A stretch of 64,000 nucleotides of DNA. It comes from Marsupella aquatica. Its lineage: Eukaryota; Plantae; Marchantiophyta. How positions within the stretch are numbered: the stretch's first letter is position 1; every line of letters begins with the position of its first letter. Below are positions 3,371-64,000 of the stretch, in pieces. The notes beneath the pieces are model-generated. The model searched no databases. It had not been told where the DNA came from and was given only the letters and a program-made list of their open reading frames with translations. The stretch spans positions 7,805,808 to 7,869,807 of the forward strand of contig OZ316891.1 of NCBI GenBank assembly GCA_973895155.1. Reading direction: 5' to 3'. A program made the position numbers and the translations under genes.

Positions 3371-3817
3371 GCCTATGCCTTGCGTCCCGCGTTCCGATTC
3401 ACTGCCTCTTCCTGAAATTCCCCCCGAGAAGAATCCGATTCACAAAACACGCACAGACGGACGATAAGATCACCTCAGTGCGTAAAATAACTCGTTCCAG
3501 ATTGTGAACCAAATCAATGGAGTCTACCACCTATGCCCTATACTGATTCATTGACTCCTCCTGAAATTCACACTCCCCGAGAAAGGATCCGATTCACAAA
3601 CACGCAGAGGCGGACGATAAGATCACCTCAGTGCAAAATAATTCGTTCCAGATTTGTGAACCAAATCAATGGAGTCTACCACCTATGCCCTATTCCGATT
3701 CACCGACTCCTCCTAAACTTCACACCCCCGGGGACAGAATCCAATTCACGAAACAGCCACAGAAGCACGACAGGATCACCGCAACGCAAATAATGCGTTC
3801 CAGATTGTGAACCAAAT
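3371..3817. repeat. ~150-bp tandem repeat, 3 copies, immediately upstream of the PSST start codon
   Basis: cctatgcc...gattca...gatcacc...cgttccagat(t)tgtgaaccaaat recurs at ~150-bp spacing (unit starts near 3372, 3530, 3682). Confidence 0.85.
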
Positions 3818-19500: not shown

Positions 19501-21013
19501 TGCGACAACTGTCCAGCTAAAATCTCTGAACTTCCTGCTGACAGTGGCCAGACAGGTTATCAACCGTGGTAGCATCTCAAGCGCAGGCACGGCAATAAGT
19601 TCGACTTTGTCGGGCTCTAAAATCCCCGAGGTGAGCGCTTGAAGAACAGCCACAAAACAGAAAGCCAGAGCCAAAAGCCGACGTAATTGCTGATGAGTTG
19701 TTGGAGTGGCATCGTGAACTAGCACTTCCATATCTCCAAGAAACTTGGTGAGCAAATTCATAGAGAATGCCAAGCTTTCCACCCAAAGATCTTGAAATTG
19801 CACGAAGCTATCTGTAATGATTCGACAATCCACTTCTGAAACTTCGGACTCAAGTGCCCACCCAAGTAGCAGGTCCACCATATCTGCGAAATGAGGTTGC
19901 ACACACCAGCTGAATCTGCGGCCTAAAACCACAAGTACACCTAATAAAGGGCGCAAAAGGGTCATTGAAGTCCCATCGTCCTCCAAAAGCGACTGGCAAG
20001 CTCTCAGTATGGGAGGAGCAAACCTCTCGAGAGTTCCTGGTTCACCTACGTTGAGAAACTCCTTCAAACCGGTCAGCGAAAGTACAGCTGCATCATTGTC
20101 CACGCTAGACTGGGCAAGCTGAGGTAAAGCCCATCCTATGAATTGCTCCGCTGGGCCTCCAGGCAGTACAGGATTTACTCGCGCACTTGATGATGTGGTT
20201 ACCGCCGCTGCAACCGCACCCCATGCACCATAAGCCACCACGGCCGCTTGCCGTACAGCATATGATCTACGCCCCCAACAGGTATGAAAATGAGCTAGTA
20301 GGTAGGAGTGGCAACTATCACCGATGAGGATTTAACAGAATTATGCTTCACACGAGCTAATGAGAAGAATGTTGAAACACCAAAGCTGAAGTCGAAATTC
20401 CGAGAACGACGTAAGTGGCTTACTCGTCAAAGATAATTCATCGACCTGGCGGTAATGCTTAGCTTACTTCAAAGATTCAGCGTAATTATATTACAGATAT
20501 AGATTAAAGCCAGGCATGCTGAGATCGTCAAATCTACAACGGTGTCACGCTGAAACACAGATGGCGAGTTGTCTAGAGAAAAAGCGGGAAAAAAAATTCG
20601 TTCTGTGCCAATGGTGGACAAAACACACACTGGTAAAACAGCCCCTCAGATATTTCCAACTGCTAAATTTGAAAGGCATTACAGAAGACTTTTCTTTAAG
20701 CGAGTGGGGTGAAAGAGAATTCCAATCCGCAGCTGTTCAGCAAGGAGCCTTACTTGTCAAAAAGCATCCGGTGCAACGAATGGAGAATTCGGAAGGAGGA
20801 TCGCCTCAGATGAAGAGCTGCATGGGGCTGCAAAATCATGCGATGCGCGGACACAATTGCTGCCACCCGGGTCGCTTCATCGACGGCAATTGCACCCCCG
20901 CTCTCCGAACTGCCGCCTCCTCCCGGAATGGCTGTGGCCAGCAAGTTAGCCAACTCCTGTTGCTGGTGGCTGGATGCCGTGGTGGAGTACGTATGTTGTC
21001 CTCCATCGCCCAT
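7589..21013 (-). CDS. SMG1: SMG1 PIKK kinase (NMD; UPF1 kinase), 8 coding exons: 21013-20754, 20266-15292, 15123-14935, 14612-14498, 14303-13223, 12937-8196, 8038-7963, 7688-7589; ~3,845 aa
   Basis: Kinase motifs TKTKPKKI, YLLKGREDLRLDSRIMQLL, GYILGLGDRHLDNILVD, VHIDYNVCFDKG and IPEIVPFRLT. A very long insertion follows the kinase domain, as is typical of SMG1. The FATC end is ATSIDNLCNMFEGWTPWI. All junctions are GT-AG and the summed length (11,538 nt) is divisible by 3. Confidence 0.95.
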
Positions 21014-22559: not shown

Positions 22560-25460
22560 AGATAACTATATCAGGTCGTTGCTGATCATGGATAAATAAA
22601 CTATTTTTCCAACGGATCACCCAAGGGCCGCATATTTCTCGACCAATGGACCCATGGGCCAAAAGTTATGGCCGACTCAAGTAGTCGCAAAACTCGACTA
22701 CCTTAACACTTAGCTCCGACTTCGTTGACTCTGACGCCGAGCTTCCTTATGGTCCAGGCCCGGATAGGCCATCCGGGGAGGACTTAGCATGGGGAGACTT
22801 GTGGGCAACAGGGCGTGGCACTAGGAAAGGCAAGGCGTCAAGTTGGTGACACACACTAAGGACTTAGACTAGTTGAAGGTTGATCGGGTCAAGGGGAAAA
22901 AGGTCGGGCTCAAGGTCAACCGTCCGGACCCCTAGATGGACTTTGAGTTCTAAGGGTGAGAGCTCCTCTTGGGCCCAAGGCCAATGGAGTTGACACCATG
23001 GGCAACGGATGCTTGGGGCACAAGTTATGGCCCGATCGGGGTTTGGCCGATTGGGGGCCCCAAGCAGCGGTGAGATCTGAGGGCCTAGGCATGAGCACTG
23101 GGTCGGCCCAATCACAATGGACTAACTAGAAAGTTATGGGCATTGCTAGTTGGTGGTGTGCCCAAACATGCGGGTTGGGATCTAGGTGGGGGGCCAAAAT
23201 TTGGGGACCAAAATTGGTCCGGGGGTGGCAGGTCTCCATAAGCATATATGAGGGCAGTGGTGTCTCCCTGGGGGCTAAAGGCGAGCCGAAGTCGTGAGCC
23301 GCGGTGATCGCGATACTAAGGAAAAACGTCAAACGGAAACGGCGATAACTTCACAACGGAATGTCCGTTGGAGGACTTCTTGGGTGCATTGGAAAGCTCT
23401 CGAGGAGCGCTACATTCTCTAGAGCTTAGATGGGTCTGGGGATGCCATAGGTTTGTGGGGTTTGCGGGGCTATCTCGCCCGCTTGCCAAATCCTACCGAA
23501 GCAACAGCCAAGCCGCGTCCAGTCTCTCAAGAGAGCTTGCATTGGGGAGGCAAGGCAGTAGGCGTGGAGGTTGATTTCCAAGGGCACTTGGCCCCTAGAC
23601 CATTAGTGGGGCAAGAACCGGGAGTTAGTTGCTAGAGTCGGGGCCATTTTGGTCCCGGCGTGTTGGGACAAACTTTAGGACAAGCTATACTACTTGGGCT
23701 ATGATCATGTCCTAGGGACAAGGCGGTCAGTTGGTGATGGATAGGTATGAAGGGGAACCCGGGCTACGGCCAAGGAAGGAGTTGTTTTGGATGAACAGTG
23801 GGCGTCGAATCTTGTTCCGACTTATGGCATCGGGAGGATCTATTGCTGACCTACTTATCAATGTCTGTTGAACTTGAGTTAGGATGCTAGACTTGGGAGA
23901 TCTAGATCTTGAAGGGTTACTTATCGAGATGCTTGGTTGCTTGTGCAGACAATGAGGACCGTTGAGTAGCGGTTGTGGTAGAGGGCAAGTGCGGCTTCGT
24001 ATGGGAGGGATCGCAGGTGGTGCAAGAGGCAGCAAGGTACTTGCTTGAGGTATTTCGTGGAGGCATTCGGGCACCAGGGGCATTTAGGCGTGGGTGCTAG
24101 GATTGGTGAGGGCGCTGGGTGGCAAGGTCCACCACTCAAGTTGCATGCTTGTAGTTTGGGCCCGTTGCCGATCATAGAAAAATAATTATTTTTCCAAAGA
24201 ATCCCCATAGGGGCCCGAGAAGCCTCACATGAGCCCAATCACTTTTATCTTGACCAATGGACCTAGGGGCCAAAAGTTATGGTTGATTCAAGCCGCATGC
24301 TTATAGTTTGGGCCCGTTGACAATCATGGAAAATGAACTATTTTCCAACAGATCACCGTAGGGGCCCAAAAAGCTCCACATGAGCCCAATCATGGGGTCG
24401 CATATTTCTCGACCAATGGACCTAGGGGTCAAAAGTTATGGTCGATTTTGACTCGACTAGAGTCGCCGCACATCAATGGACCAAGGGGGGTTGCTTGGAC
24501 CAGAGCGGGTTGTTAGGCCATAGGCATGGAGGATGAGTTCCAAACGCACTTGGCCCCTAAACTACCAGTGGGCGAGAACCGGGAGTTGGTTGCTAGAGTC
24601 GGGGCCGTTCTGGTCCGGACGTGTTGGGACAAGCTTTAGGACAAGCTATGCTATTTGGGCCATGAGCATGTCCTGGGGGTAGGGCGGTCAGTTGGTGACT
24701 GATACATACGGGGAGAACCCGAGCTGCACCCAAAGAAGGAGCTATTCTAGACGAACAATGGGTGTCGATTCTGGTTTTGGCTTTGGCATCAAGAGGACCT
24801 ATCATTGACCTACTTACCAATGTCTATTGAGTTTGAGTTAGAATGCTAGATTGGGGAGATCTAGATCCTTGTGGGTTATTTATCGGACTACTTGGTTGCT
24901 TGTGCAGAGAGTGAGGACCGTTGAGCGACAATCGTGCTAGAGAGCAAGTGCGGCTTTGTATGGGAGGGGTCGTAGGTGGTGTTGAGGGCACCAAGTTGCT
25001 TGCTCAAGGAGTTCCGTGGAGGCGTTCGAGCACCAAGGGCACTTAAGCGTGCATGTTGGAATTGGTGAGGGCGCTAGGTGGCTAGGTCCACCACTTAGTT
25101 TGGGCCCGTTGTCGATCACAAAAAAATGAACTATTTTTCTAACATATCATCATAGGGGCCGAGAAGCCCCACATGAGCCTAATCATGGGCCGCATATTTC
25201 TCGACCAACGGACCTAGGGACCAAAAGTTATGGTCGATTCAAGTCGCATGCTTGTAGTTTGGGTTCGTTGACGATCATGGAAAAATGAACTATTTTTCCA
25301 ACGGATCACCATAGGGGCCCGAGAAGCTTCATATGAGCCCAATCATGGGGCCACGTATTTGACCTAGGGGCCAAAAGTTATGGTGAAATTGGACTTGACT
25401 AGAGTCATCGCACATCAATGGACCAAGGGGGGTTGCCTGGACCAGAGCGGGTTGTTAGGC
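22560..25460. repeat. Degenerate repetitive element: two ~0.95-kb tandem units (~23585-24520 and ~24547-25461) plus nested ~130-bp subrepeats
   Basis: gcacttggcccctag/aa...ccgggagtt.gttgctagagtcggggcc occurs at ~23585 and ~24547. gaccaatggacc.aggggccaaaagttatgg recurs at least 5 times (~22640, 24255, 24415, 25205, 25360). No recognisable protein domain. Confidence 0.75.
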
Positions 25461-26516
25461 CGTAACTTCTAGCCCCCAACTTGTGCTTGAGCCCAAGTTG
25501 TAGAGGGTTTTTGATTATCTTTGTTTTGAGCTAAGTGGCGGGGCCCACGGATCCTTGGATAGGGGGCCAAAACTAGTCCGGGGCTAGCAGGTCCCCAGAA
25601 GCATATATGAGAGGAGTGCTCCTCTCAAGTTTCAGCTCGAGTTAATCATGATCAAGAACATACGTTGTTTCAAGTTTTGGAGCAAAAATATGCATAACTC
25701 AAAGACTGGATCTTCGTTGAGGAAGTGTTTGGCTCATTGAAAAGCTAATGAAGAAAGTTACTTTATGGTGCTCTCTAATTGTGCATTGGACGGTTTTAAT
25801 TTTGAGGCTTGCAATTGGGGGAATTTCTCTTGCTGATCCGAAGTCGAACAGTGACCAAACCACATTTGGTTCCTACAGGGGCTTAATGTTGGAGAGGTAG
25901 AACCAAGTAGACTCTAGGATCTGTCATTGAGTTCTGGTCCCGATGCATGGTGAGAGTTTGAGCAGAACCCAATTTGGTCTAGGGGGAAGGGGGGATATTT
26001 ATGGAAAAGAGGGAGGGAGATGCTTCATCTTGCCCCTTCCATTCGTGGGTTAGGGTGAGAAAATAGTCAAGTTTATTTTCTCACCTCAAATTGTTTTGCT
26101 CTACTTTACATTTGGTTTGCTCAACATCCTTCTCTCCTTTGCAAGAATTTATCTCCTCATTTTTTCTCATCTCAACATCTTTTCTCTTGTGGACATATGT
26201 TTCTCACCTCTACATCTTTTCGCTTTTCTATATTTTTTCTAATGATTTATTTTATCACCTTAACATTTTTTCTCTCCTCGGTATCTTTTTTTGTATTTGA
26301 TATCTTTTTCTCTCCTCAATTTTTTTTTGCTCACCTCAACATCATTTCTTACCTTAATATATGTTTCTCTCTTTGATTTTTTTTATCACTTTGATATCTT
26401 TTTTCATTTAGATATCTTTTCTCTCCTTAGTATCTTTTATCATCTTGACATCTTTTGTGCAAAGGGCTAATTTTTCACCACTTGACATCTTTCGTGGAAA
26501 GGCCCCGGGCTAGTAT

Positions 26517-27835: not shown

Positions 27836-28930
27836 ATGGCGGATTACGGAGATGTGTACATGCGCAAAGATGGCGCGGGGCCACCCGGGCGCACCAAGGC
27901 ACAGAATCGAGCCACCGTGCAGCAATTGAAGCTCATCGGGCAAAGTCATCCGACTGGGCTCACCGCCAACCTGCTCAAGCTCTTCGAGCCCCGTCCTCCA
28001 CTGGAATACAAGCCTCCCATCGAGAAGCGCAAATGCCCTCCGTATGCAGGCATCGGACATTGTGTCAACCAGTTTGCAGAGCCTGGCGATCCGGAGTATG
28101 CACCTCCGGTCACGAAAGGGGAAACTCCCGCCCAGCGGAGGCTTCGGATCCACGCCCTTCGACTAGCGAAAGGAGCCGAGAAGGCGGCCGCGGAGCTCGA
28201 GAAGTACGATCCTCCGAGCGATCCGAATGTGGAAGGCGATCCTTACAAGGCCTTGTTCGTGGCGCGAGTAAGCTATGAAACGACAGAGCACAAAGTTAAG
28301 AGGGAATTCGAGGCCTATGGCCCCGTTAAGAGGGTCCGGCTTGTGCACGATAGCGTCACTGGGAAACCCAGAGGGTACGCCTTTATCGAGTACCAACATA
28401 CGAGGGATATGAAGACTGCGTATAAGCAAGCGGACGGGAGAAAAATTGATAATCGTAGAGTGCTGGTCGATGTGGAGAGGGGAAGAACTGTGCCGAATTG
28501 GAGGCCGAGGAGGCTCGGCGGGGGATTGGGGTCGACCCGCGTTGGAGGGGATGAGGTCAACCAGAAGTTCTCGGGGCGGGAGCCTCAAGTCTTGACTGCT
28601 GCTGCTCCAGTAAACAGTAGATCGGAGGAGAAAGTACGTGAGCCGGAGCGGGGCGAGCCTCACAAGCGGGAGAAAGATTATGATCGGGAGAGGGAAAGGG
28701 AACGAGAGCGAGATCGGGAGAAAGAACGAGGTGGTGAGCGGGATCGGGATCGGGACCGAGACCGTGACCGGGATAGGGATCATGATAGGTATGCTGATCG
28801 GGGGAGGGATCGCGGTGGTCGGGACCGCGACAGGGAGAGAGAACGAGGGGTTCGCGAACGGGATAGGCACCATGATCGAGGAGACCGTGATAGGGATCTT
28901 AACGAGCGGGATAGGGAGAGAGATCGATAA
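27836..28930 (+). CDS. U1-70K: U1 snRNP 70-kDa protein, single coding exon, 364 aa
   Basis: U1-70K N-terminus (SHPTGLTANLLKLFEPRPPL), RRM with GDPYKALFVARVSYETTE and RNP1 KPRGYAFIEY, RRVLVDVERGRTVPNWRPRRLGGGLG, and an RD/RE-rich C-terminal tail. First ATG at 27836. Confidence 0.95.
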   Translation: MADYGDVYMRKDGAGPPGRTKAQNRATVQQLKLIGQSHPTGLTANLLKLFEPRPPLEYKPPIEKRKCPPYAGIGHCVNQFAEPGDPEYAPPVTKGETPAQRRLRIHALRLAKGAEKAAAELEKYDPPSDPNVEGDPYKALFVARVSYETTEHKVKREFEAYGPVKRVRLVHDSVTGKPRGYAFIEYQHTRDMKTAYKQADGRKIDNRRVLVDVERGRTVPNWRPRRLGGGLGSTRVGGDEVNQKFSGREPQVLTAAAPVNSRSEEKVREPERGEPHKREKDYDRERERERERDREKERGGERDRDRDRDRDRDRDHDRYADRGRDRGGRDRDRERERGVRERDRHHDRGDRDRDLNERDRERDR

Positions 28931-45200: not shown

Positions 45201-47808
45201 TGTGCGTGCAGATTCCAAAGCTGAGGTAAAACTTTCTGATGTGAAATGGCATCTTCCCATATCGGAGAAACTGGTGCGCTCCGGTTGGGGTTCGGCGTAT
45301 GTACAGAGCGTTTCTGTCATACAATTGTCGCCTTCTCGCCCCCTCTCTCTTTCTCTTTTTCTCTTCAGTTAAGGCGCTCGCTTGCCAACTCCCCTCGTTA
45401 CTATCAAGTAATTCGCTCACGAGCGCAGAATGGTCTATCAACTTCAGCTTGCTCGGTCGGTTGAATTTAATTTCCCGAAGCGTCTAACAGCTTTCCTCTC
45501 CTGTAGTTGGCAATTGGCCAAGTAGCGGACCTCAGCTACGGTAGTTGCGTCGATGCGGAATAGAGGATTACTCTTTTCTCTGGTTCTCGTGGCCTTGAAA
45601 CGGAAAATCGTGGCTGGATTGGATTCCTCACTTTTGTTTGTCCGTTTCGATGGCACGAAGCTCGGAATTCTGTCGTGCGCCAAGCCATCACAGTTTGCTG
45701 CGGTGGTCTTATTCAGATGATTGCATTACTGCGGTGCGATGTCATCAATCGCTTTTGCCTGCTGTGGTCTCGCATAGATTAATCGACTGAATGAACAAAT
45801 CGTAGCTCATGTTTGATAACAGGATGCTGAATTTCCCTTCGATGAAATCAGTACGCGTGTGATCGTACTCTAATTATTCGTGACAGAGCAGGAACCATCG
45901 AATTGAGCAAATGAATCACCATTCTAGTTAGATTTCATAGGGAAGGCTGCTGTCTGCCGCTCAGAATGACGCGTGCGAGGAACTTCTCCGGGATTACTCT
46001 CGTGTGTTGGAGGATTGAGTGTGCGAAGATCCGAATGACCTACTGGCGCACATGATTCTTCTTCACAAACGGTACATGAAAATAGATTTAGGAGCGAATG
46101 CGTGTTTCATGTTCAGAGTGAAGAATTACCAAACTTTATGAAAGATAAATGACACCCTGTTCTTCGTTTTCGATGACTCAATTTGACCTCACGACGGCCT
46201 GGATTCTGTGGTGACCTTCGATGAGCAATTGTTCGATTCTTTCCTTTCCAATGAGTTTACCTCTGCAGATTTGAGAGTGACAATTAGCGCTGTCGATGTG
46301 CAGAATGAGGTTGTTAGGGAATGTGAAGATTTATATTCACATGGAAAGGTGCACGTCAATCAGAGCTTTGCCATGTCCAGTATCAGATTTACGGGAACCG
46401 TGAAAGATCTGAGCCGATTCTGCTCTGTTGGGGCTGTTGTGGGAAATGCCAAAAATCATTTCTCAACAACATTCGTTTCGGGCTTCTTTATAAGCAAAAA
46501 TACATATGAATGTGTTCTACGATGTGTTCATAAATTTTTCCTTTGAGAAGATTTTACTCGTACACGACCAAAGAAAATATAGTCAATTGAATTGATGAGG
46601 AAACTCCATCTGGAATATGGCATTTGGAAGCCTTTTCATAAGTCTAGTGGTGAGATTTCACCGATTTTGGGTCGGTAGAAATTTTGAAATCTTCTTGAGA
46701 AACCCCTTATCGACTTAATACCTCTTGTCTCAGGCACAACTCGTTGCGATGGTGGGGTGCAGCAGTTAAGGAATGCATTTGATTTGTTTTTTGCAGTGAT
46801 ATTGAGAGCTTACCACTTTTCTTAGGTTTTTTTTTGGCTGTTTCTAAAGTCTTGTTTTCTGCATAGAACAGATCAACAACAGATCAGTCACTCTGGGAGT
46901 ACTATCAAATGCACAGGGACTTCAATAAGCTGGTACAGTCTCAGAAGAAGGAGCCAAATGAAGAGTTGTACTCTTGCATTTACCAGAAGTTTGAAGGTAA
47001 AAACATTTCTGACGTAAAGCCTTTCCGTCGTCAAAACAGTCAAAGGGAAGCAATGCAGGTACCGAATGCTTCGCCCTGTACGTAAACAAGTGTAGGATAT
47101 ATTCTTGAAGGGCAATAACGGAAAATGCAACAAAGGTTACCCGTCTGCACTGAAAATTGTTGCGAAACGCATTCTCCAAACAGTCATCACTAAGCTTCTC
47201 CAGAGTCTCGCCTCTAGGTGTGGTGGAAGCCATTGTTATCAATCATGCCAAACTGCCGTGATGGTTGTTAGATTTCTCCTGTCGTCAAGTTTTTCTTGTT
47301 TGACGCTCTCTGTTGGCTTACTGCTACGGTTTTAATTTCTGTGTTATGTTCCAATTCGAGCTGGGTGTACTAAAATATTTTTGACCGTCATTTTTCATGC
47401 ACTGGAGGGAAGTATAGTTCCGAGGCCCTGTAAATTTGGTATAGTATGACAAGTTGGCCCCAGTGCAAGAACAAGAACTTTGCAATGTGGTTGATGTTGT
47501 CTCCACTATCCTAGTAGTTTCCTTCAAGGTTCGGGAACAGTGGTCTAGATCGGTTCTTAGTAGCGAATAAGTAGATGAGTTTAAACTGACGAGGATATTT
47601 TGGTCAAATCAGAAATCTCTTTGTATCTGGTTGGCTTGTGCCAGCAAAACACCCTTGTCGTGTTTTCCAGTTTAAAGCAGTTATAATATCAGGTCTACTT
47701 GAGGACAAAAATATCTTTCATGTTCTATTCTGATGCTTGGCTTTTGCTTCTTGTATCTTATTAGTTCCTGCAGGTGTTGGGCGGTCACACAGTGATCTGT
47801 TGACGACC

Positions 47809-50800
47809 ATGCAGTGCAAAGATGCTATTAATTCTAGCACAGGAGATATTATCAGGAGTTTCTCATTAGGGAGCCCGCGAAAGGACAAGGAGCACTCAAT
47901 AATAGGGCAAAACCTTGTTCCCACCGAGAACATAATGACCGAAGGGAAAATACCAAATGACCCGTCTTCAGAACCTGGCTGTGGTGAACAGAAGGGCGTA
48001 ATTAAGTACGATGAGAACGAGAAGAGTCGTGAACGTCTACCAGATTATGAGGAAGAGGCAACGATTGGTAGCTTCCTTATGGAAACATCACCAGTTGATG
48101 AACGAAATTTCTTTGAGTCCGACCTTCTAGTGCACGAGCTGCAAAAAACTTCAGATGCTCTTGAGGAAATGGAAAGCCGGGTGCAGGTCAAGGTGATGGT
48201 TGGTGAGGCTGTGCTGAAGGGCATATTGACTGCTATGGAAAGGGATGCCACAGAGGCAGTGGAAACTAAGGAGGCTGAGTTGCAGAAGGTTAGAGATCAG
48301 TTGCAGGAGAAAGAGTCTATCGTTAACAGACTCATATATACGTTACAAAACAAGGAGGATGAAATTTCAAAGCTTGTTGAAGAGAGCAATCAGAAAGAGA
48401 GGAGGCTTGTCTTGTGTATGCTGACAGAAAGAGAGAGAGTGCTTGCAAAGATAAAGGAGAGTGAGAAATTTGTGGCAACCAAAGAAGAGGAGATTCTGAA
48501 TATGGCAGAGAATATGGTGGAGCTTGCTAAAAGTTTGGATTGTGGAAGCAAGAGAGTTAAGGAGCTGGAAAGGCAGATCAGAGAATTTGTAGCTTCCAAG
48601 GGAACAGAAGCAAATGCTATGATGGAGAAGTCTGAGCAGTCTAAATCACAGAAAGACTCAGTAGTTGAAATGGTCAGAACACAAGGGGAGTTAGGTTTGA
48701 CTGATTCTCTGGTTGACAAGGCTAAGTCCCCTAATAGGCATATTCAGAAATTTAGATATCTAGAATCTGCTGAGCAACAATTAAGGGAGGCATTGCAAGT
48801 GCACAAGGCTGAGGTCTGTCAACTCCTGCAATCAAACAAGGACGACTCGACGCTTCTGAAGAAGCGCAAATTTGAAAACAAGTATGCTGCGGACGAGCTT
48901 GATTCAAGAGAAAGCCATAAGTCTGTGCAAGGTGAGGTGGAGCTTTTGAAGAATAGAATTCTAGAGCTGATAATTGAGAATTCTATGCTCGTGAATGAAC
49001 TTAGTAGTCAAAAGGCGGAAATTGGAGTCAAGGTGAAGGGGCATCAGCGAGAAAATGGCCTCCAAGATGAAGAAATTCACAATCAAGCAGTTTCCGAATC
49101 CGAACAACTGTTGAGGATCGAATTAATGAGAATGAGAGCCACCGTGCAAGAATATGTGGAGGCCGCTCAATGTCTGAAAACAAAGATGGAAGAACAACGC
49201 TGGATGCATGAATTTGAAACTGGTGTGATCATAGAAGCTTTCAAAGGGAAGGTGCTGGATTTGATTGACGAGACACACCTAGTTGAAGACGACCCGGCAG
49301 GCAATCAGAGAGAGAGAAAAATGTCTAGGAGCAGAATGCCGCAAAAAGGTCGTACGGAGCTCGTCAACTTGCAGTCGTCCAAAGTGGAATTCCAGGAATC
49401 GGTGAACAAACTTAACGCTGTGACCAGGGATTTTAAACAAATAATCGAGGAAAAGGACAAGAACTTGGATGATGGACTGCTGTTGAGGAAAACAGAGAAT
49501 GGGATCTCTCATCTGAACGAGAAGTTGCCTGAGAAGCAGTCTCATCTTCAGAAGTACAACAATCAATCAGGAGAGAGAAAATCTCACGAGGAGAGTGTAG
49601 AAAAGAAACAGCAGGTGTTGGAAGAAAATGCTCAGATGTTAAGAGAAGCACAAAATAGGGTTTCTTTCCTGGAACAAGAGTTGGCTGTGAAGGAAGGTCT
49701 TCTCCAGACGTGCAAAGTTGAAATGGAAGAACACTCATGGAGATTCGAGCTTGAAGAGAAGCTTCTAAGCACGTATGTCCAAGACTCTTTCCGGGAGTTT
49801 ATGAAGCACACGGTTGAAATCCAAGGAAACCTTGTTGACGTTGGGCAGAAGCTGGTGAGTAGCCAAAATGAGCTCGATGCAGCTCAGGATGAACTGATGA
49901 AATGTAAAGCAGAAGTAGATACTCTGAAATCAGTTGTTGGATCAAGTTCTAATTTTGTAGATCAGCTACAAACTGAAGCTAAGAGCTATCTCTCAGAGTT
50001 AGAACAAGTGAGAGTAGAGCTTCAGGATGCACGTTCTGAATCTGATAGTGAAAAAGTTAGTTTTTCTGAGAAACAGAAGGAAATAGGTTCTCGGACCAAG
50101 GAACTGGAAGAAAATCTTTTTATGAAAGGGGAGGAAGTTGTAGAACTGCTGCGGAAACTAGAGGAGAGTGACTGGAAGTCCCAAACACAGACCGCTATCA
50201 TCCTTGGGCTTGTAGAGGGATCCACCCAAGAATGTGCTGTGGAGTTTGCTCGGCTTAGAGAGGAGCTCAAACTTAAGCATCAAGATGTCTTATCGCTACG
50301 GTCTGGGGTTGAGGAACAAAATGAAAGGTTGAACTCTTATGTATCTGAGGTGTCGGACTTGACGACCGCTTTAGTAAGGAAGGATCACGACCTCCTTGCT
50401 TTCAGACAAGAGGCTGAGTCGATAAGTGCCATGCAACGAGATGCTCTTTTGCGAGAGCAGGAGACAGTCAGAGGAGCTTTGAAAGAAATTGAGGACCTGA
50501 AGAAAGTGAAGATGACGTTAGTAGCAAGGATAGAAGAGGAGAATCAGAGGGTCCAGCAGTTAGAGGAGGCATTAGCAGAACAGACCTGGAAAAACGGAGT
50601 TGAGCTGGAAATGGTTGCGACTATCTTTTGGGAAGGTAAGCCTGATGCTTCAGTCACCTGGACCAAAGAAAGAGCAGCGCCTCCCAGTGAAGCCCAGAGT
50701 CATCATGGGCTCGCAGGACAGAAGCCTACTGCGAAGGAGTCTTCAAATCACGGCCCTCATGAAGGTGGACATGATGGATTGATTGTAGAATCCGCTCATG

Positions 50801-52569
50801 GTCCTGTTCAACATGCAGAATGCGAAGCATCTAATGTAAAGAACATTCCAGCCGTAAAAGCCGACCCAGTCATACTTCTTGAGAGGCAAAATTCCGAGCT
50901 TCGCCGAGAAAAAGAGAAGCTGCTGGAGCAGAAGACTGATGAGATTTACAAGCTCAAACGTGAATTCTACAAGGAATTAGAGCGGATCAAAGAAGAATGG
51001 AAAAGGGATACTGGGCGGCGTTGGGATGATGAAAAGTCAAGCTTAATGGAAACGACATTTCAGAGAGATGAGCAGATTAAGGGAAAAGATGAAAGGAGTA
51101 CAGCAGTTCCGACAGAAATCTCCGATGCATTAGAAAAGGACAGGACTCACGTATCAACGAAGGTAAGCTTGGTTGACAATCTGGCTGCTCTCGAAAGGGA
51201 AAGGAGTCGCTTGAATTCAGTTCATCAGAGAGAGAAGGAGAAGCTGATTGCATATTACAAGAAGTTGCTCGAGGAGAAGCATGTTGCCTTAAGTGGAGCA
51301 CTTGAAGAAATTCACGGGAACAAAAAGCACATTGGGGGATTGGAGGTCGAGTGGAGTCAATCAAAGGATGAAATTGAAGCTTTGAGGATTGAGATGGGGA
51401 GGAGGCAGGAGCAATTCAAAAGCGATTTTGAGCAGATGCAAACATTAATGGTATCATATGAGCAGCTAGAGAATCGTGCTTCTCACAAGATTAACCAGTA
51501 CAATATCAGGTCTGAATGCCTCCTCCATCCAGTACCGCCTATCTGTTGTCTCAGTGTTTGGTCCAGATCCTTCTACTGAGGCTTTCTAAGCTGAAGTAAA
51601 CAAAGATTAAGCTCCCCTTGTGGTTTGTTCTATCCATGGATCTCCCTGTTGGACTTCTATTTTTGATGCTGATTGTTTTTCATTAGGAATCGAATACTCT
51701 ATGTACTGGGTTGTGAGAAGCTATTTCCCTTATGGAATTTCATTAGCGTGATCTTGAGATCCACCAGTCACCGGAGCTGTTATCTTCAACTTGACTTTGG
51801 CATCTTGATATGGAAGTGAACTTGTCTGTGAATATTAGGCTGGAAGCGGCACAAGGTCTGGTAAATTATCTAATCGGGCAATATCGCGTACTTCCACTGA
51901 GTGAAACCGAGTATCTACAAAATGTCCAGAATCTTCAAAAAGCGGAAACAGAGGTGCATATCTCCCCTCAGGGATCTGTCGAATGTTAGTATTTGGTTCT
52001 TAGAATGTGTACTTTTGACGGTAAATTGAGGTCCATGAAGTTGCAGCTTGTGGATTTTGTGCTTCAGTTTGGGGCCTGTCTTCCTTCCATACCATATGAG
52101 TAGCATACCGCAGATCGAGGTGTGCTTGGATGGTTGAATGGGTGGAAAATCGTATCACAAATTTGATTTCTTGACTAAATCTTGTGGATTTGAATAAAGG
52201 TGGACATGCTTGGAGATGAAGTTGATGCTCTCATGGATATATTAGAAAAGGTTTACAGCGTGTTGAATCATTATTCTCCAATTATTCAACATTATCCTGG
52301 GGTGAGTATGATGAGAAACTGCAACTGACGTGCTTTGAAAATCTAGAATAAGAAAATTATGGCAGAGTCCCTTGAGAGTATCATTTTAGAATCATATCGT
52401 TTCATGGATGCATCAAGCAATGTACTTGCTAAGCGTGGAAATTGTCTGTTGGTGTCAATGCATATCCTGAAACTAATTTACTGTACCGTTGGTGAACCAG
52501 TTGGCAGAGCTTGTGAAGGTAGTGAGACAAGAAATTCTCCAGCGTCTAGAAGACTCCAATGAAGTTTAA
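47809..52569 (+). CDS. WPP domain-associated protein (WAP)-like long coiled-coil protein; exons 47809-51509, 51839-51953, 52200-52301, 52501-52569; ~1,328 aa
   Basis: Long E/K/L/Q heptad-rich ORF. The spliced C-terminus NLQKAETE|[34 protein letters not shown]|[12 protein letters not shown] matches the conserved WAP C-terminal motif as I recall it. N-terminal [20 protein letters not shown] is WAP-like. The start codon is uncertain because upstream exons are possible. Confidence 0.75.
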
Positions 52570-55424: not shown

Positions 55425-55822
55425 TGATAAGTCACATTTTTAGTGGCAATGTAGTTGAAAGTTGTTTGGTATAATTATCCTCTAATGATGGAGCATACTG
55501 GCATTGCAAACTAAGGAATACATGTGACAACAACAGGATAGTTGAAAGTTGTTTGGTATAATTATCCTCTAATGATGGAGCAAACTGGCATTGCAAACTA
55601 AGGAATAATTGTGACAACAACAGGAAGGTTGGGCCTCTTCTCATCTTAAAGTTTAAGCGCAATCCTATTGTGATTGTATATAGGGTTACAAGTGCACCTC
55701 ACAGCATTGTTGTGTAGCCCTGGTTGCTGCAAATTCCAAAGGACTTGTTTTCTGCACTAATGTGCCTGACTGAGCCTTAAAAATGTCATAGTCCATGACA
55801 TTTTGGGAGGACTGAATAATCA
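55425..55822 (-). repeat. Putative 3' LTR (~398 bp), TGAT...ATCA termini, with an internal 87-bp tandem duplication (55452-55538, 55539-55625)
   Basis: On the minus strand it starts TGATTATT directly after the purine tract and can end TTATCA at 55425. A TATA-like ctatatac sits at ~55676-55683. The distal boundary cannot be confirmed without the 5' LTR. Confidence 0.6.
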
Positions 55823-55833: not shown

Positions 55834-56914
55834 ATTGTTAAGCCTAGTGTTTTTTCTAGAATTTAGTCACAATTCATGATTTATTCCATGTAAACCCCAT
55901 GGATGAGGGGGAACAAAGTAGCACACAATGCCACCAAAAGACCAGTCAGAGGGCATACTAAAGCACATGCAGCACACTAGGCGCAAAGCTCAACCAAAAT
56001 GGCAGTGTGCCATAGAAGGCCACCGTAAGGAGAGTAAGTCAAAACCACCAATGTAACCCATGGCCTGACAGAGCACCGCACAGGGAGCACATAGTTGCCA
56101 CCAAGGTCACCACCAGCAAAGGGAAAACAGCATAGTACTGCTGACAGGAAAGTGGACCAGCCTAGCTATAACCCTGTCCTATCCTTCCTTGGAGGACACT
56201 GGGAGTCACCCCACCTAAGCCAAACAGTCAATTCAGTGCCAACACATTCTAAGGCCTTAATAAGACAAGAGTGTTTCCTATCTTTATTCATATTATCTAA
56301 TATGATCAGCACCTCTCATAACAGTAGGATGACAGTGAACTTCTGCCGGCCACCAGAGCAAAACATATGTTCATTGCTACCACGTCACAGGGCACTGTCA
56401 AACTTAGTGTTGAACATTATTGAGCAATTGTGGTGACCTGGATCCACCAGGTTTTGAAAATGGACACTGGTGGTTCAAAGAAATCACCAGGGTTGGGCAA
56501 AAATGTGACCGACACAGGCAAACTGACAATTTTTGCCTGAACATAGCTTTTATTTTTTGTAAATGAACATAAATAAATGTCATGGGAGGGTTCACACTCT
56601 TGCCACCACAGCTGGAGGGTGGGTCCATTTTCCATCTATGACAAAATAAATATGGTCAGAACCTCCACAATATTTGGTCTCTGTCGTGACATATAGTATC
56701 GTAGCCATAGTGTATCAAAAACATACAAGTCGTCGGCAAGGCATATGTGCAAGCTGCTAGCAACCAACATGCATAGAAAAAGTCCAATCACATTCACAAG
56801 TGCCAAGAAAAAGCAAATGAAGTGGTATGTACGTAGTGGAGGTGTAAACCTCTGTATCCCCCCCAGACCACAGCCAAAAGGAGGGCTGAAAAAAATTCAG
56901 GTAGCACGTGGAGC

Positions 56915-57049
56915 ACAGGAAGGGCAAAACCATAACCCTTCTGGCACCTGGGTAAGTTCAGGCCGAAGGCAGAAAAGATGGTACCCTCCATTGCAATTGT
57001 CACACAGCAGCATCTGGTCAGCATCATCAATTCACAAACACACTTTGCA
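56915..57049 (-). other. PHD zinc finger at the integrase C-terminus (absent from the ORF track because of flanking stops)
   Basis: In-frame translation CKVCL*IDDADQMLLCDNCNGGYHLFCLRPELTQVPEGLWFCPSC gives the canonical Cys4-His-Cys3 spacing with the PxGxWxC signature. Confidence 0.9.
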
Positions 57050-60000
57050 AGGGTAGTCCACAAGTGGAATCCAAGTAGAAGTCACAATGGTGGAATCCAG
57101 GTTAGGCAGATGACAAGGGGCGCAATTCTTGGCATTGTCAGCAATTGTGCGCCCATCTGCCCCTTGTAACTCTAGCACTCCAGACGGTCAAATAGCTTTA
57201 ACCCTGAGAATAGTATGACTAGTAGAGGTGTCCAGGGTGTCGTTAGCTTGCCGCTGCAAGTACACAAAATCTCCCACTTCAAAATTCCTGACCTTGGGCT
57301 GAAAAGTGCCCCCTCGTGTGTGTGCATAACGCAGTGTGTCCCTATGCTGTGCGATGGCCAAATTCTCCATGGCCATGGGCATAACCCTCCTGAATAGGGC
57401 AGCCCTCTCAGAGATCACATCAGACCAAGTCACAGCTGAATCCAAGTCTACCACCTGAAGCATGTGAGTAGCAATAGCAGAAGGTGGAACTGCGTGACGA
57501 CCAAACAACAAGAAGTAGGGAGAAAAGTTAGACAGTGATGCATGTCTAGACATCCTATACCCCATGGCAATGTAGGGTAAGGCCAGGTCCCAATCCTCCT
57601 TGTTTTTGGTGAGGCAAATCTTCCGGAGACCCTTCTTGCATGTCTGAACCATGCGCTCTGCCAAGCCATCTTCCTGTGGGTGATCTCGTGATGTCCGGCG
57701 ATGATCAATGAGGGCCTGATCAAGCAGCTCCTGGAACTCTCCTCTAAACTCTGAGCCCTGGTCAGTGAGACATTCTGCACAAGCTCCAAAGCGGCTGAGA
57801 ACTTGTTGCAGGAATGCCTGGCTAGTGCTACGGGAGGTCTTATCCGGCAATGCCACAAGTTCTATCCACTTGGAGAAATGCTCTATCATGATCATGATGT
57901 AGAGATTACACCGAGATGTGAGGGGTAATTCTCCAGCCAAATCACATGACCAACGATAAAACATGCCCTGAATAGGGAGTGGATGAAGTGTGGGTTGCCG
58001 AGATGTGAAAGAAGTCCTTACCCTATCACACTGCTCACACCGGGCAATAACATCTCGAACCTGGCCATGCATGCCTCTGCAATGATAATGAGGGACCAAG
58101 AGGCTGTAAGTCCTCTTAACACCAAAATGACCAAGCTCAAAATGTACCTTACAGATAAGGCCAACCCTCTCATGAATGGGTGGAACCACCACTTCCCTGT
58201 CTGGCAAGCAGCGCACAAGATGATCTCCCTTCCACAAGTAGCGCTTGGACCTTTGCTAAATTCGGTCTCTCTGGGCAGCAGTAACATGGATGGGGTACTC
58301 CCCATGCTGCAAAAATCTCAGAGTGTCGATGTCCTCCCATATGTCCACCACAGGTTGGTCAACAACGTAGCATGGCAGCAAAGCAAGATAGGTAGATGCA
58401 TGAAATGTAGGCAGGATGGAAACCTGGTCAAAATCCTGCCGTGCATCTGAGGAATCATCAGAGGCAATCAAAGGGCTGCGGGACATAGTGTCAGCATTTT
58501 GATGTGTCACACCAGGCCTATGAATTACCTCAAAATCATACTCCTGGAGTATGAGCGCCCAACGAGCAAGCTTGTCAGTAAGCTTGTCGTTGGTCATCAA
58601 CCACTTCAAGGGCTGGTGGTCGGTGTAGAGAACAAACCTGGTCCCATAGAGGTAGGGCCTGTAATGTATGACAACCCACACAACAGCAAGGCATTCACCC
58701 TCATAAGAAGAATAATGACTCTCTGCCTGATTGTTGCTCCTGGATGCATAGGCAATGACGTACTCTTTACCGTCCTCATCATGCTGGCCCAGAATGGCAC
58801 CAATCCCAAGGGCACTCCAATCTGTGTGTAACACAAAGACCTTGCTGAAATCAGGTCTTCTCAACACCGGGTATTCTGAGAGCTTCTCCTTCAAAGTGGC
58901 AAATGCTGCCTCAGCATCTGTACTCCACGTCCAAGTCACATTCTTTTTCAACAAAGCATACAATGGGTGTGCAATGGTACTAAAATCTTTGATGTAGATC
59001 CGGTAGTAATTGCACAACCCAATAAAACTCCTCAAAGTGTGAACATCGGTAGGAGTGGGCATTTCCAAGATGGATACCACCTTGGCCCAGTGAACCATGG
59101 TTCCATTTGGAAGAATGCGATGCCCAAGATATACTACTGATCTGACAGCAAATTCACACTTCTTGGGGTGTATCTTTAGGTTCACCTTCTTAAGCCTCAT
59201 GAATAGCTCCTCAAGGTCAAGTAGATGCTGGTCAAATCCTTTGCTGTGGACCAACACATCATCAATGTAGCATTTCAGAAACTCAGCACCTTGAAGAACC
59301 TGGTCCATGACTCTTTGAAAGAATATGGGCGCATTCTTCAAGCCAAATGGCATCACCAACCACTCCCATAGTTGGTTACTACCATGGAAAGCTGTTTTCT
59401 TGCGGTCCTTTGCAAGCAGCAAAATCTGGTTAAAGCCTTGCCTTAGATCCACAAGAGTGAAGATGTCTGAGTCTCCAATGCTGTCAAATAGCTCCTCTGG
59501 CCGTGGCATGGGGTACCTGTCCTGGGGTGTGACCAGGTTTAGTGGCCTGTAGTCCCCACACATGCGCTTCTCTGTCCACAATCCACTGGAATCCTTCTTT
59601 GCTGGCATCACTGTAGCTGCTGCAAAATCTGATGTAGATGGCTGAATAAGACCAGCTTCATATAACTCTTGGCACCTCTCATCCACCAGCTGCCACTCAT
59701 GCTTACTCAAACGGTGTCTCCGCCTGAAGATAGGTGTTTCATCAGCCAACTCAATGGAGAACTGCATAGTCTTGCACTTACCCAAGTCCTTCATAGAGAA
59801 AGCAAACACATTCTCATGCTTGAGGAGCAAATTCAGCAGCTGGTCCTTCTGTCTTTTACTCAGGTGGTTGCCCATGATGAATGTGTAGTTGGCAACACTA
59901 GGAATAGGACCTGATGTACTCATACTTGAAGAGCCAGAAGTGCTAGCCTCTCCACTGTCCAAGCTGCTAGCATGCTGCTGGTAAGGTGATGAGGCCTCTC

Positions 60001-60229
60001 CAAGGCCTGTTGTACCTGCTGATCTGGGTTGGTCCACACCATGAAACTCAGAAATAATATCAGCCACATTACAAGGGACCTCCTCCCCCCCAACACTTGG
60101 ACTGAAGCGGTGAGTGTTGAATAGAGGTAAGTGCACTTGGTCGTGATGCCATGTAGCAGCACCATGGAGTGGTAGAGCTAGAACTCCAGATGCTGGATGA
60201 ATGTACATCTGAAAATGGATGCAAGTGAC

Positions 60230-61170
60230 CAGAAGCCAAGTGAGAGCATTAAGATCCATTACCCTGCCAAGTAAAGCATTCCTGGCCAGCCTGGTGATCT
60301 GGGTGTGACCTGTAGTACCGGATTGGAAGCCCATAGCCCGTTCTCTCTCCTCAGGACTAGGTTCATCCCAAGTATCGGTAGAATGTCGATAAACCAGGCC
60401 AGGACCATCACCCTGAAAGGCATGTGCACCTGGAAAGGATACAAATGTAGGCCAAGCAGCACGGGGCTGTCCAATGGTATTGGCTGGATACCAAGGTGCT
60501 GGCTCTTGCCGTGTAACTGGTTGGCAAGAACTGTCAGGATCCAAAATCTGGTCCACTGTGAGGTTAGTGTCCCTGGATGTGTGGTGAAGAGCTAACTCCA
60601 ACAAGGAAGGTGGTGCAAGGTTAGTCCAAAAGTTACGAAGACGATGTGCATAAGAACCACAGTGCACTGCATCAATGAGAAGGGGTGGTCCCAAGTAGTG
60701 CTGGACCACACTGAAATCCTCTTTGACCTGTGGACGCTGGTCAAACTGAGATGGAGTATTCTCAATGATATAACCAACAGCAGGATAAAGGGATTGAGCC
60801 CAGGTGAGAATCTGAACCAATGCTGTGAAAAGGCGAGAACGAGAATCATGCAGTCCAGCACCGTGACCAGCAGCTGAAAACCCTTGGCATTCCCAACCAG
60901 CTATGATCAAATCAAGGGAGCCAAGAAGGGTTAAGTGCCGGTGCTAGACAAGCTGGATATCTGGAGGAAAGAACGAAAATGCAGACTTCCATGCACTGTG
61001 TGGAAACTGCTGGGGAAATCACTCTGAAAATTCCAGCAGATGGGATTCAGCCACTTGCCTTGCACCTGGATCAATATCCACATAGATGTTCTACTTCACC
61101 ACCATGCCAGACTGTAGGAGAGCTTCCAGGCCTGTAGAAATGCCACCAAAAAGCTCAAGCAATGTAAGGC
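60230..61170 (-). other. DNMT3-like C5 cytosine DNA methyltransferase domain within the retrotransposon polyprotein, between protease and RT
   Basis: Motifs occur in canonical order: I LLELFGGISTGLEAL; II IYVDID; III PPDI; IV DLIIAGWECQGFSAAG (Cys at 60887-60889); V GLHDSRSRLF; VI YIIENT; VIII PLLIDAVHCGSYAHRLRNFWTNL; IX PSPEERERAMGFQSGTT; X RLARNALLGRVMDLNAL. Confidence 0.9.
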
Positions 61171-64000
61171 CATCTGAAGGAGGAGTCCATGTAACTGGTG
61201 CGCTCAAGATTGGGGCTATTGGTTGGCCATTGTGCTGCCCAAGATCCTCAAATTTGCGCAATGCAGCCACCAAAGGTCCATGGGCTGCTTGGAGCCGTTG
61301 TACCACCTCTGGTTGATGATCCACGTTGCTGGAAAGTGCTACTATACGTGCAGCAGCATGTGCAGTAGCCACCTCATCATCATCCTCCTCAATCCAATCC
61401 CGCAATGGGTGGTTGACATAGGTAGCTGTGTGCACTGCTTTCAACACACAGTGGTGAGCCATAGGTGTATGGGCACCATGCAAATCAAGTGGAATGTAGC
61501 CCAAGTGTGAGCCATCCGTATGCCAATCAACTCTGTAGTATGCATGCTCATGCCAGTTGTCAATGGTAAAACCTGGTGGGAACAAAGCCTCCTGGCCAAT
61601 GAGCACATCATACGTAGTGGCACATCTGACTGGGAAATGCAATTCCTGATCTGTACCTCCATTAAAAGTGAGAGTGAGTAAAGTAGAACTCTCACCCAGC
61701 ACATCCTCCATAGTGCCACTAGTAGTTTGAATGTGCCACTTGGATTGCTATAAATGATCAGTCAACAATCCCGTCTTCTTGGCAAACTGAATGCCCAATA
61801 TCACTGGTTGAGCACCTGTGTCTAGCATGACCACCTGAGGAGTGTGACCCTCTAACTTGACCACTGAATTCCTGTTATCAACAATGGCAATGGTTGTGGA
61901 AACTAAAGTCCTGTCACTAGGCACCACTCTCGGCAAATGATGAGGTACCTTGTGAAGGGAGTTAGTGTCCACGGTCTTTCCACTCAACAACATAGCCAGG
62001 AAAGATGGAGCAGCATGACCAGAAACAAGTGTAGCTCTGGTCACACAATCAGCAGCAATCGGTACTGGGGCAGCCAAACCAGTGGAAACATGTAAAGGAG
62101 AAGAAGAAGGTCCAGTATGTACATGAGATTGGACCTCCAAAACCGGTGTCACAGGGGCTGATGAAGAATGCAGTGAACCCTCTAGCGCTTTGAGGACAGC
62201 TCTAGCATCCAGCTGTAAATCATGGCAACTGAAAAGTGGAGTTGTAAGAATCCTTTGTGCCATACCGGAGGTGAAATGCTCAAGCAGCTCAGGAGAAACA
62301 ACTCCCTATGAAATGTCAGCAGCACCTGGTGGTGGAATGGATGTAGCTACAGCTCCCTCCCCCCTCGCCAACAAGGTGTGCTCTTCAGCAAGTGTGAGTG
62401 GCTGAAAAGATTGGGGCATGACAGCCTAAGCTCCCGTGGCTCTAGTCATAGGACCGGCAGCAAGACTATCAGCCTGTACAATGCGGCGTGTGGGAGCAAT
62501 ACGGGAGGCAGCACTGGCCTGCTGGTAAGCAAAATAGGAAGGGCAGAATGAATTTGAAAATTATGCTGTAAGGCCAGGCTGTGTAGCAGAGGACAGCACA
62601 CACTCACCCATATGAGCATCAAATGGCAAGCCATAGAAAGAGCGGGGTAGAGGTGCTGAACTGTCAGTGGTGCCGGGGCCAGGGATGGGTTGCACGTGAC
62701 CAGCCGGGTGAGAAGGACCAGCAGAGGCAGGTGACTTGCCTTTGATGTTGGCAAGTTGGGCACGTAGGGACTCAACCTCATGAGTCAGAGACTGGAGTTG
62801 AGTTGCCTATGCGTTGTGAGCCTCGTTCTGAGCTGGTTGCTTCTATTGCTGCTTGGGCGGTTTGTTGGCACTGGGTGCTTTGCCACTGGAAGGAGGAGCA
62901 GTTGATGCAGTAGGAGCCCTCCTAGTTGGTGGGGTAGTGGAAACAGGAGCAAGATGAGTGGCCTGTTGTCGTAGCTGCTTCCTCTCTGGGAATTTGGCAA
63001 AACAAACTGCCTCCAAGTGGCCCACTTTTCCGCAAAAATCACAAGACAGGTCCTCAGCAACAATATCACATTCATTAGCCTTGTGATTAGGATTGCCACA
63101 GTAGTTGCAAGATGACAGCATGAAAGCAGCATGTGCTGGTTTGGTCTTGGAAGCATACTGTGGCACACGGGAAGGGGTGGCCATTGTAGGGGCAACAGCC
63201 TGGTACCTGGATCGCGGTGGACGCGCAATACTGGCCTCATAATGTGCATGGGCCAACTCAAGTTTCTCAGCAGTGTCATAGAAATTGAGCAATGAGTAGC
63301 TGTCTCCAAACTTTGAGAATACTTGCTGCAACACTTGTGAATGGAGAGCTGGTGTGCCCTCCAATGCGCGAAGATAGCGATGAGCAGCTTCCAGGTTAGT
63401 GATGCTCTAGGTGTCCTCCTTCAGCTTAAGAAGCCGGCGATACATCATCTTCAAGGTTTCATCGCGCTGCCTCACAAAGGTCGCCAACTGCATGATTTTG
63501 TCAGCACTCTTGATTGGGAATTCCAATTCAAGAACCTGGAAAAACTCAGCCATTGGATCAGCAAAGGCAAGAGAATCAATGGTGGGAGAAATGCCTGATG
63601 TAGCCTGTGCCAAGACAGTGGGAGTAACTAGCGCAGTGGTAGGAACTGGAGTAGGAGGGGAAGTGGCAGGAGCAGCAGCATGGGCTACAATGGCATTCTG
63701 TAAGGCCAATTGTGAGGCTGCCGCAATTGCACTGGCATAGGTAGGGTTAGGCAACTGTGTGACAGCAAGCAGCCGTTGAGAGTGCTGCTCATACACATCT
63801 AAAGCCTCATGGTGCACATACCTGGCTAGCTGCTTAAATGCAAAAGAATTTGTGAAATTGTTGCCGTACTTCAACTCCAATTCGTAAACGACAGTGTAGA
63901 AAGTGGATTTGAACTCACGTAAAGAAACAGTGCCTGGCCGCCCGCTGAAGCGTTCAATGCGACCAGATGAGTGGCTGGCGTCCATGCTGTATGTCGGTGA

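Follow-up and report, generated by a model that had tools for sequence, protein, structure and literature searches.

A DNMT3-like cytosine methyltransferase domain in Gypsy retrotransposons of liverworts, peat mosses and green algae

A Gypsy retrotransposon encoding a Dnmt3-like cytosine methyltransferase (DNMT) was described by de Mendoza et al. 2018 in Klebsormidium nitens. In the accessible part of that paper (PMC5890265), KnitGypsy-Dnmt3 has an intronless, unpermuted Dnmt3-like domain with its key residues kept in a Gypsy Pol frame, is under purifying selection, combines DIRS-like repeats (A-coding-B-A-B) with Gypsy domains, and is presented as an acquisition of the K. nitens lineage. We analyzed a 64,000-nucleotide stretch of the Marsupella aquatica genome (contig OZ316891.1), hereafter the window, and found a copy from a family sharing these features. 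Compared through the published description, the element is of the Gypsy-Dnmt3 kind already published for Klebsormidium. We find elements of this kind in chlorophytes and Closterium as well as in liverworts and Sphagnum, with two layouts and a C-terminal PHD finger.

Several other systems share parts of this organization. SymbioDIRS-Dnmt3 of Symbiodinium, as far as the same accessible text describes it, also has a Dnmt3 domain in Pol, A-coding-B-A-B repeats and two domain orders; it is a dinoflagellate tyrosine-recombinase element, whereas elements of the present family encode an rve integrase and are flanked by 4-bp target duplications. An unpermuted catalytic domain is likewise found in animal DNMT3A/B and in the host DNMT3 of moss and other non-flowering streptophytes (Yaari et al. 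2019, PMC6453930, accessible part). The host plant enzyme (PpDNMT3 type) is described there as a stand-alone gene with a C-terminal DUF3444, while the window domain lies inside a polyprotein; no DUF3444 was found in Pfam scans of the window polyprotein or of the relatives scanned. Like our element, the EpiLTRs/DAM-LTRs of a 2026 preprint (bioRxiv 10.64898/2026.05.21.726589) are Gypsy-like and join a methyltransferase to a chromatin-reading domain. In the accessible text their DNMT is sister to DNMT4 and is paired with DAM and a chromodomain. That main text, so far as accessible, names 'streptophytes (Gypsy-DNMT3)' as an earlier case, and the words 'bryophyte' and 'moss' are absent from it. A PHD finger is also found in the green-lineage Gypsy polyproteins Gypsy-7a_cRei and REM1 of Chlamydomonas, with no methyltransferase among the domains listed for them in the accessible part of PMC9940879.

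With most subscription papers outside the search, we found no land-plant or chlorophyte description of such elements, and the accessible parts of PMC11982613, PMC8616336, PMC10952607 and PMC11244446 held nothing further on them. A Marchantia methylome paper lists five DNA methyltransferases, and those described here are not among them. The range of these elements is far wider than what we found in print, which is one green alga.

The Marsupella copy and its methyltransferase domain

By Pfam scan and sequence, the window copy encodes on the minus strand a Gypsy polyprotein in the order gag, protease (PR), DNMT, reverse transcriptase (RT), RNase H (RH), integrase (IN) and PHD finger (Table 1). 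The Pfam matches follow one another along the frame as zinc knuckle, aspartic protease, DNA_methylase (PF00145), RT, RNase H, integrase and PHD finger. ORF translation gave a single minus-strand frame from 64000, the window end, to a stop at 56897-56899, with zero frameshifts. It is interrupted by 13 in-frame stops, three of them inside the DNMT (61091-61093, 61019-61021 and 60944-60946), and this copy is dead. An earlier note on this DNA had described a complete C5 methyltransferase in frame between protease and RT, followed by a Ser/Gly-rich linker. The in-frame position and full length were borne out and the linker is seen in the translation, but the three stops leave the domain without an intact reading. 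The note was right about the identity of the DNMT; the PHD finger, split repeats, green-plant spread and stops were absent from it. Over 23 copies we counted 396 stops, mostly one C-to-T or G-to-A change from the reading of other copies, a pattern that would fit decay of methylated DNA.

Table 1. Features of the element copy in the M. aquatica window.
Feature	Position	Strand	Basis and remarks
gag, N-terminal part	63221..64000	-	68-71% identical to the corresponding part of related elements; one stop; element 5' end beyond the window
Gag CCHC zinc knuckles (two)	63002..63112	-	Sequence; weak Pfam zf-CCHC match for the first knuckle
Aspartic protease, LDTG at 61814-61825, one stop	61583..61861	-	Pfam PF13975, E 1.1e-4, under its cut-off
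DNMT3-like C5 cytosine methyltransferase domain, motifs I-X unpermuted, three in-frame stops	60206..61171	-	Pfam, sequence, fold comparison
Ser/Gly-rich linker from DNMT to RT, variable, in frame	59846..60205	-	Sequence and relatives
Reverse transcriptase, YIDD at 59258-59269	59081..59803	-	Pfam RVT_1, E 8e-28
RNase H	58538..58927	-	Pfam RT_RNaseH, E 4e-37
Integrase, zinc-binding and core domains	57521..58180	-	Pfam Integrase_H2C2 and rve
PHD finger, C-terminal end of polyprotein, one stop	56915..57049	-	Pfam PHD, E 2e-10
Seven-G run, likely polypurine tract	56858..56864	-	Sequence; G run also 5' of repeat B1 in related loci
Terminal repeat B, single copy, CA end at 56682 as right end of element	56682..56857	-	Depth jumps at 56682, where loose ends are diverse; further loose ends at 56681 and 56857; aligns weakly to the L011 B repeat

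Elsewhere in the window, the minus strand holds the long exons of a large kinase gene (8173-20331), which we take to be SMG1-like. A U1 snRNP 70K gene lies on the plus strand at 27836-28930 in one unbroken frame (Pfam U1snRNP70_N and RRM_1), its nearest cluster being from Streptophyta. Also on the plus strand is an open frame of 1281 residues (47734-51579), rich in Glu, Lys and Leu and likely coiled-coil, with only a weak Pfam match. A degenerate repeat array with periods of ~950 and 150 bases occupies 22566-25464, and an 87-base tandem duplication lies downstream of the element at 55452-55625.

The window DNMT matched PF00145 with 27.5 bits, above the curated cut-off of 22. On the minus strand, motif I reads LFGG (61142-61153), motif IV GWEC (60887-60898), motif VI IENT (60755-60766) and motif VIII HRLR (60635-60646), followed by IX and then X, with IX and X at 60254-60271. 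The motifs run from I to X in sequence order and are not circularly permuted, as the earlier note had it. Membership in the plant DRMs was rejected since the permuted order is absent and only residues 1-145 of the model align with DRM2.

Among solved structures, the best sequence matches are DNMT3A, DNMT3B and DNMT3C, and a 30-sequence profile scored DNMT3A at 99.5 bits, DRM at 46-55 and M.HhaI at 37. The structure model of the domain (pLDDT 92.4) had DNMT3A as its top Foldseek match. Against 48,161 chains, VIA-align gave DNMT3B a Z of 28.4 (rmsd 2.6, 275 aligned), DNMT3A 27.3, M.MpeI 25.1 and M.HhaI 22.2; DNMT2 reached 20.6-22.4, below DNMT3 (27-28). Identity to DNMT3A/B is about 21-27% in the structural alignments. 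By sequence and modelled fold DNMT3 is thus the nearest family, ahead of DRM, DNMT1/CMT, DNMT2 and the bacterial enzymes, which supports the DNMT3 likeness proposed earlier. Descent from a eukaryotic DNMT3 would rest on these sequence and fold scores rather than on a tree. Phage C5 methyltransferases (L040-L045; Pelagibacter, Escherichia, Vibrio and others) are 25-28% identical, with E to 4e-11. A phage or viral origin seems less likely on these scores, the phage match being ~28% and predicted viral structures fitting the domain model worse than DNMT3 does; the outgroups of the DNMT tree are five phage enzymes.

We collected 237 matching proteins, near-copies included, of which 107 span the whole domain. 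The window domain has the SAM-binding motif I, catalytic Cys, Glu-Asn and Arg-x-Arg, as do 97-107 of these 107 homologues. Residue by residue, the two glycines of motif I are found in 101 and 107, the catalytic Cys in 106, Glu-Asn in 106 and 105, and the two arginines of motif VIII in 106 and 102. The usual Pro before the Cys of motif IV is often replaced: G-W-E-C is found in 65 of the 107 and the G-[W/F]-P-C type in 41.

A family in bryophytes and green algae

To see whether the DNMT belongs to a family, as opposed to a one-off insertion, the earlier note had called for other copies of the same RT family. A metagenome scan yielded 39 related loci at 40-74% identity. Those on long enough contigs have the same domain order, and the close ones all have stops or frameshifts. 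One locus also holds a second family copy on the opposite strand (L021:7572-12409), and another an unrelated retroelement of 30-33% identity (L024:762-2676). Stop-free copies, also sought at the suggestion of the earlier note, were found elsewhere: P0094 (DNMT 76% identical), P0129 and P0378 have PR, DNMT and RT in one frame, the latter two as whole stop-free polyproteins. Copies of the family in the host were viewed through sequencing-run contigs. In run X1 the summed contig depth, which serves as a contrast only and not as a copy number, was 79,552-157,228 over the DNMT versus 91,780-169,824 over the RT, hundreds-fold above the flank. At the two DNMT stops tabulated in this run, nearly all of the depth differs from the window copy.

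For dN/dS we used 22 of the 39 loci, after dropping apparent duplicates and short loci. Between the window DNMT and these loci the ratio was 0.08-0.16 in 18 and saturated in four, with dS to the window itself saturated (1.8-3.2) and a column filter that biases dN downward; a value near 1 had been set beforehand as contrary evidence. The DNMTs of L001 and L002 gave 0.09. Across all pairs, mostly of dead copies, the median ratios (DNMT 0.38, RT 0.37, linker 0.43) do not set the DNMT apart. These comparisons support a DNMT that is common to the family and, judging from sequence, under purifying selection. Of the refuting conditions named in the earlier note, the three that were checked (lack of a PF00145 match, absence of the DNMT from other copies, dN/dS near 1) did not arise.

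We also surveyed which organisms carry the element. At E values up to 1e-30, a profile search gave 663 clusters (50% identity), of which the best 150 were inspected. Among the matches listed, the named carriers are Marchantia polymorpha, Calypogeia fissa, three Sphagnum species and Closterium, along with the chlorophytes Haematococcus, Chromochloris, Monoraphidium and Cymbomonas. The bryophyte proteins are encoded on long contigs (9-67 Mb) or Marchantia scaffolds and are therefore not stray contamination. Among the same matches, from word- and length-limited searches that do not prove absence, there was no named carrier in vascular plants, hornworts, Physcomitrium or Klebsormidium.

The carriers have two layouts. 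In layout A, PR-DNMT-RT, are the window element, the bryophytes and Closterium. Layout B, RT-RH-DNMT-IN-PHD, places the DNMT between RNase H and integrase and is found in the named chlorophytes and most other long matches. P0013 and P0081 fit neither cleanly, and P0089 is of the PR-DNMT-RT type though labelled B in the DNMT tree with five phage outgroups. Four layout-B polyproteins (P0024, P0046, P0064 and P0296) also carry PF01585, presumably a G-patch.

All trees are quick trees with SH-aLRT as the only support. The RT tree has 94 rows, comprising 25 of 25 layout-A proteins, 32 of 88 layout-B proteins, 35 of 68 without a DNMT, and two loci. All sampled carriers fall in one RT clade with a support of 100, and 59 of its 61 rows have a DNMT, carriers being over-sampled as the rows came from DNMT-containing queries. 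Membership in the chromoviruses or in Athila/Tat (OTA) was rejected because this clade is separate from the angiosperm, Chara, fungal and animal Gypsy rows, whose lineage names were read from Pfam domains. One protein of 2130 residues within the clade, P0418, is without a DNMT and has no Pfam match in the 1,800 residues before its RT. The earlier note had asked how RT and DNMT trees compare: for 44 proteins with both domains, the A/B split is supported at 98 in both and patristic distances correlate (Spearman 0.72). Layout A is not one clade in the larger trees, and layout B may therefore have arisen within it.

Bryophytes have two element lineages, each with liverwort and Sphagnum members. 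The nearest named relative of the window copy is a Calypogeia fissa protein, 78% identical in the DNMT and 85% in the RT; Sphagnum proteins are 58% identical. The Marchantia lineage has four copy pairs of 96-98% identity, and its frames are dispersed, begin with gag and retain the catalytic motifs. Their dispersal, this high identity and the gag at their start led us to reject domestication of these Marchantia frames. In six proteins of the Marchantia and Calypogeia lineage (P0006, P0100, P0107, P0108, P0010 and P0134) the gag-PR-DNMT frame stops 84-86 residues past the DNMT. RT-RH-IN is therefore likely a second frame in that lineage, with the DNMT made at the Gag level. Unlike this split frame, the window's own lineage has a single frame throughout.

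Two alternatives bear on the history of the domain. That a single copy captured a fragment of a host or microbial methyltransferase, or that the resemblance is due to chance, might be suggested by the 13 stops of the window copy and the modest Pfam score. This explanation is scarcely credible and was rejected: most of the 39 related loci have the DNMT flanked by the same domains, contig depth in X1 over DNMT is like that over RT, stop-free relatives exist, the RT clade consists almost wholly of carriers, and the DNMT and RT trees are congruent. Horizontal transfer among mosses, liverworts and algae, as opposed to inheritance from an element of the green-plant ancestor, is possible, though we lean away from it. 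Both bryophyte lineages mix liverwort and Sphagnum members, and the identity of the window copy to Calypogeia and to Sphagnum proteins is also consistent with transfer. The layouts argue the other way, as their split tracks that of the hosts, with PR-DNMT-RT in streptophytes and RH-DNMT-IN in chlorophytes, in a small sample of named rows.

Split terminal repeats and integration

In the related loci two repeats, A (~320 bases) and B (~175 bases), are arranged as A1-ORF-G run-B1-A2-B2. The complete A-ORF-B-A-B structure is present in five of the 39 loci (L009, L011, L026, L027 and L031), and 16 of the 39 have B-A-B 3' ends, some of which are the same insertion. A conventional search for twin LTRs recovered only repeat A. 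The relatives' ends start with TG and finish with CA, and the 4-bp target duplications are exact in four of five and have one mismatch in the fifth. None of the five is of the NCGN form, the insertion site that Phygy prefers (Neumann et al. 2019), and the family differs from Phygy in this trait. A 2-base spacer separates B1 from A2 in all 11 junctions shown, with an intact CA-NN-TG in five. No tRNA-type primer site was evident by eye 3' of A1 in four loci.

The 3' end of the window copy had no BLAST match to the related loci, and its B repeat aligned weakly to the B of L011, with a score of 71 versus a shuffle maximum of 62. Four sequencing runs had the jump in depth at 56682 together with diverse loose ends, and the loose ends at 56857 and 56681 look by eye like A|B and B|A junctions. 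As these junction-like ends come from runs holding the window's family, the host family also has split repeats; in the window copy B occurs only once. L005, L024 and L037 likewise end in a single B. In L038, an internally deleted copy (700-760 and 3558-3734), the last bases of B precede A and one B is present at the 3' end, a weak hint of an A-B-A-ORF-B permutation.

Because the G run adjoins B rather than the TG end, an ordinary linear LTR cDNA cannot simply account for the two ends. The internal CA-NN-TG junction suggests that the element integrates from a circle. In the simplest reading, the integrase would open such a circle at a CA-NN-TG site and leave one junction uncut inside the new copy; copies with a single B could come from one-junction circles or from B1-B2 recombination. 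Against this, all five complete copies are A-ORF-B-A-B, although a circle with two equal junctions could also yield A-B-A-ORF-B. Circular intermediates are the model for the DIRS group; DIRS-1 cDNA was found mostly linear and single-stranded, as reported in the accessible part of PMC7192593.

Proposed role of the element-borne methyltransferase

We consider it somewhat probable that, in working copies of this Gypsy family, of which the window holds a dead one, the DNMT3-like domain travels in the particle and methylates the element's new double-stranded DNA before or at integration. The polyprotein would be packaged and the protease would free the DNMT inside the particle, where it could meet the new double-stranded DNA and methylate its cytosines. 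Reverse transcription would lead to a circle that the integrase may open at CA-NN-TG, and the PHD finger may steer integration to marked chromatin. A new copy would then be methylated on arrival, and so may resemble host DNA or damp its own expression. A bias in target choice through PHD-type domains has been proposed for other elements, and the Symbiodinium DIRS Dnmt3 domains carried out de novo CG methylation in yeast, their authors proposing methylation of the cDNA (accessible parts of PMC6673714 and PMC9940879, and of PMC5890265, respectively). Counting against the proposal, no methylation was seen when the Klebsormidium Gypsy Dnmt3 domain was assayed in yeast, an outcome that de Mendoza et al. 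themselves call inconclusive (PMC5890265). CpG depletion was rejected as a trace of self-methylation, being neither specific nor beyond the flanks: CpG observed/expected was 0.28 in the window copy versus 0.53-0.55 in two host genes, and 0.40-0.42 in five related copies versus 0.21-0.55 in their flanks.

The enzyme's target might instead be the host DNA near the insertion site, or other copies in trans, and not the new cDNA. The chlorophyte-type DNMT directly 5' of integrase and PHD would suit such a target, and the Marchantia-lineage frame end past the DNMT would give enzyme far beyond the need of one cDNA. Yet both layouts fit packaging with the cDNA equally well and the flanks of the five related copies are without consistent CpG loss, and we regard this target as unlikely. 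A further alternative is that the domain is retained for a different job: it could bind or methylate the RNA of the element or an RNA-DNA hybrid, or be a structural component of the particle. The inactivity of the Klebsormidium domain on yeast DNA and the unusual W-E/P-C motif IV are consistent with this, and de Mendoza et al. raise RNA methylation for a LINE-borne enzyme (PMC5890265, accessible part). We find such a job similarly improbable, with the Cys, Glu-Asn, Arg-x-Arg and SAM-binding glycines near-invariant and the fold nearer DNMT3 than the tRNA enzyme DNMT2.

A broader history that joins self-methylation to the circular route can be offered only tentatively. One Gypsy lineage may have taken up a DNMT3-like domain before chlorophytes and streptophytes parted, the domain may have moved between two positions in the polyprotein, and the enzyme may have been kept active into liverworts and peat mosses, with the element integrating from a circle that is opened at the internal CA-NN-TG and methylated by its own enzyme. 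The case for Gypsy-borne DNMTs had stood on a single alga. To it we add the land-plant and chlorophyte range, the single RT clade with two layouts, the young Marchantia copies, and ends suggestive of a circular intermediate. If the trees hold, this was a single ancient green-plant capture and not a Klebsormidium oddity. The combination of a DDE integrase with DIRS-like split repeats suggests that integration takes a different route from that of ordinary LTR elements. As Marchantia polymorpha is a carrier, the role of retrotransposon-borne DNMTs can be addressed with existing methylomes and mutants. If the reading of ancient uptake, circle and self-methylation is true, the young Marchantia copies would give this model land plant a source of de novo methylation that has gone uncounted.
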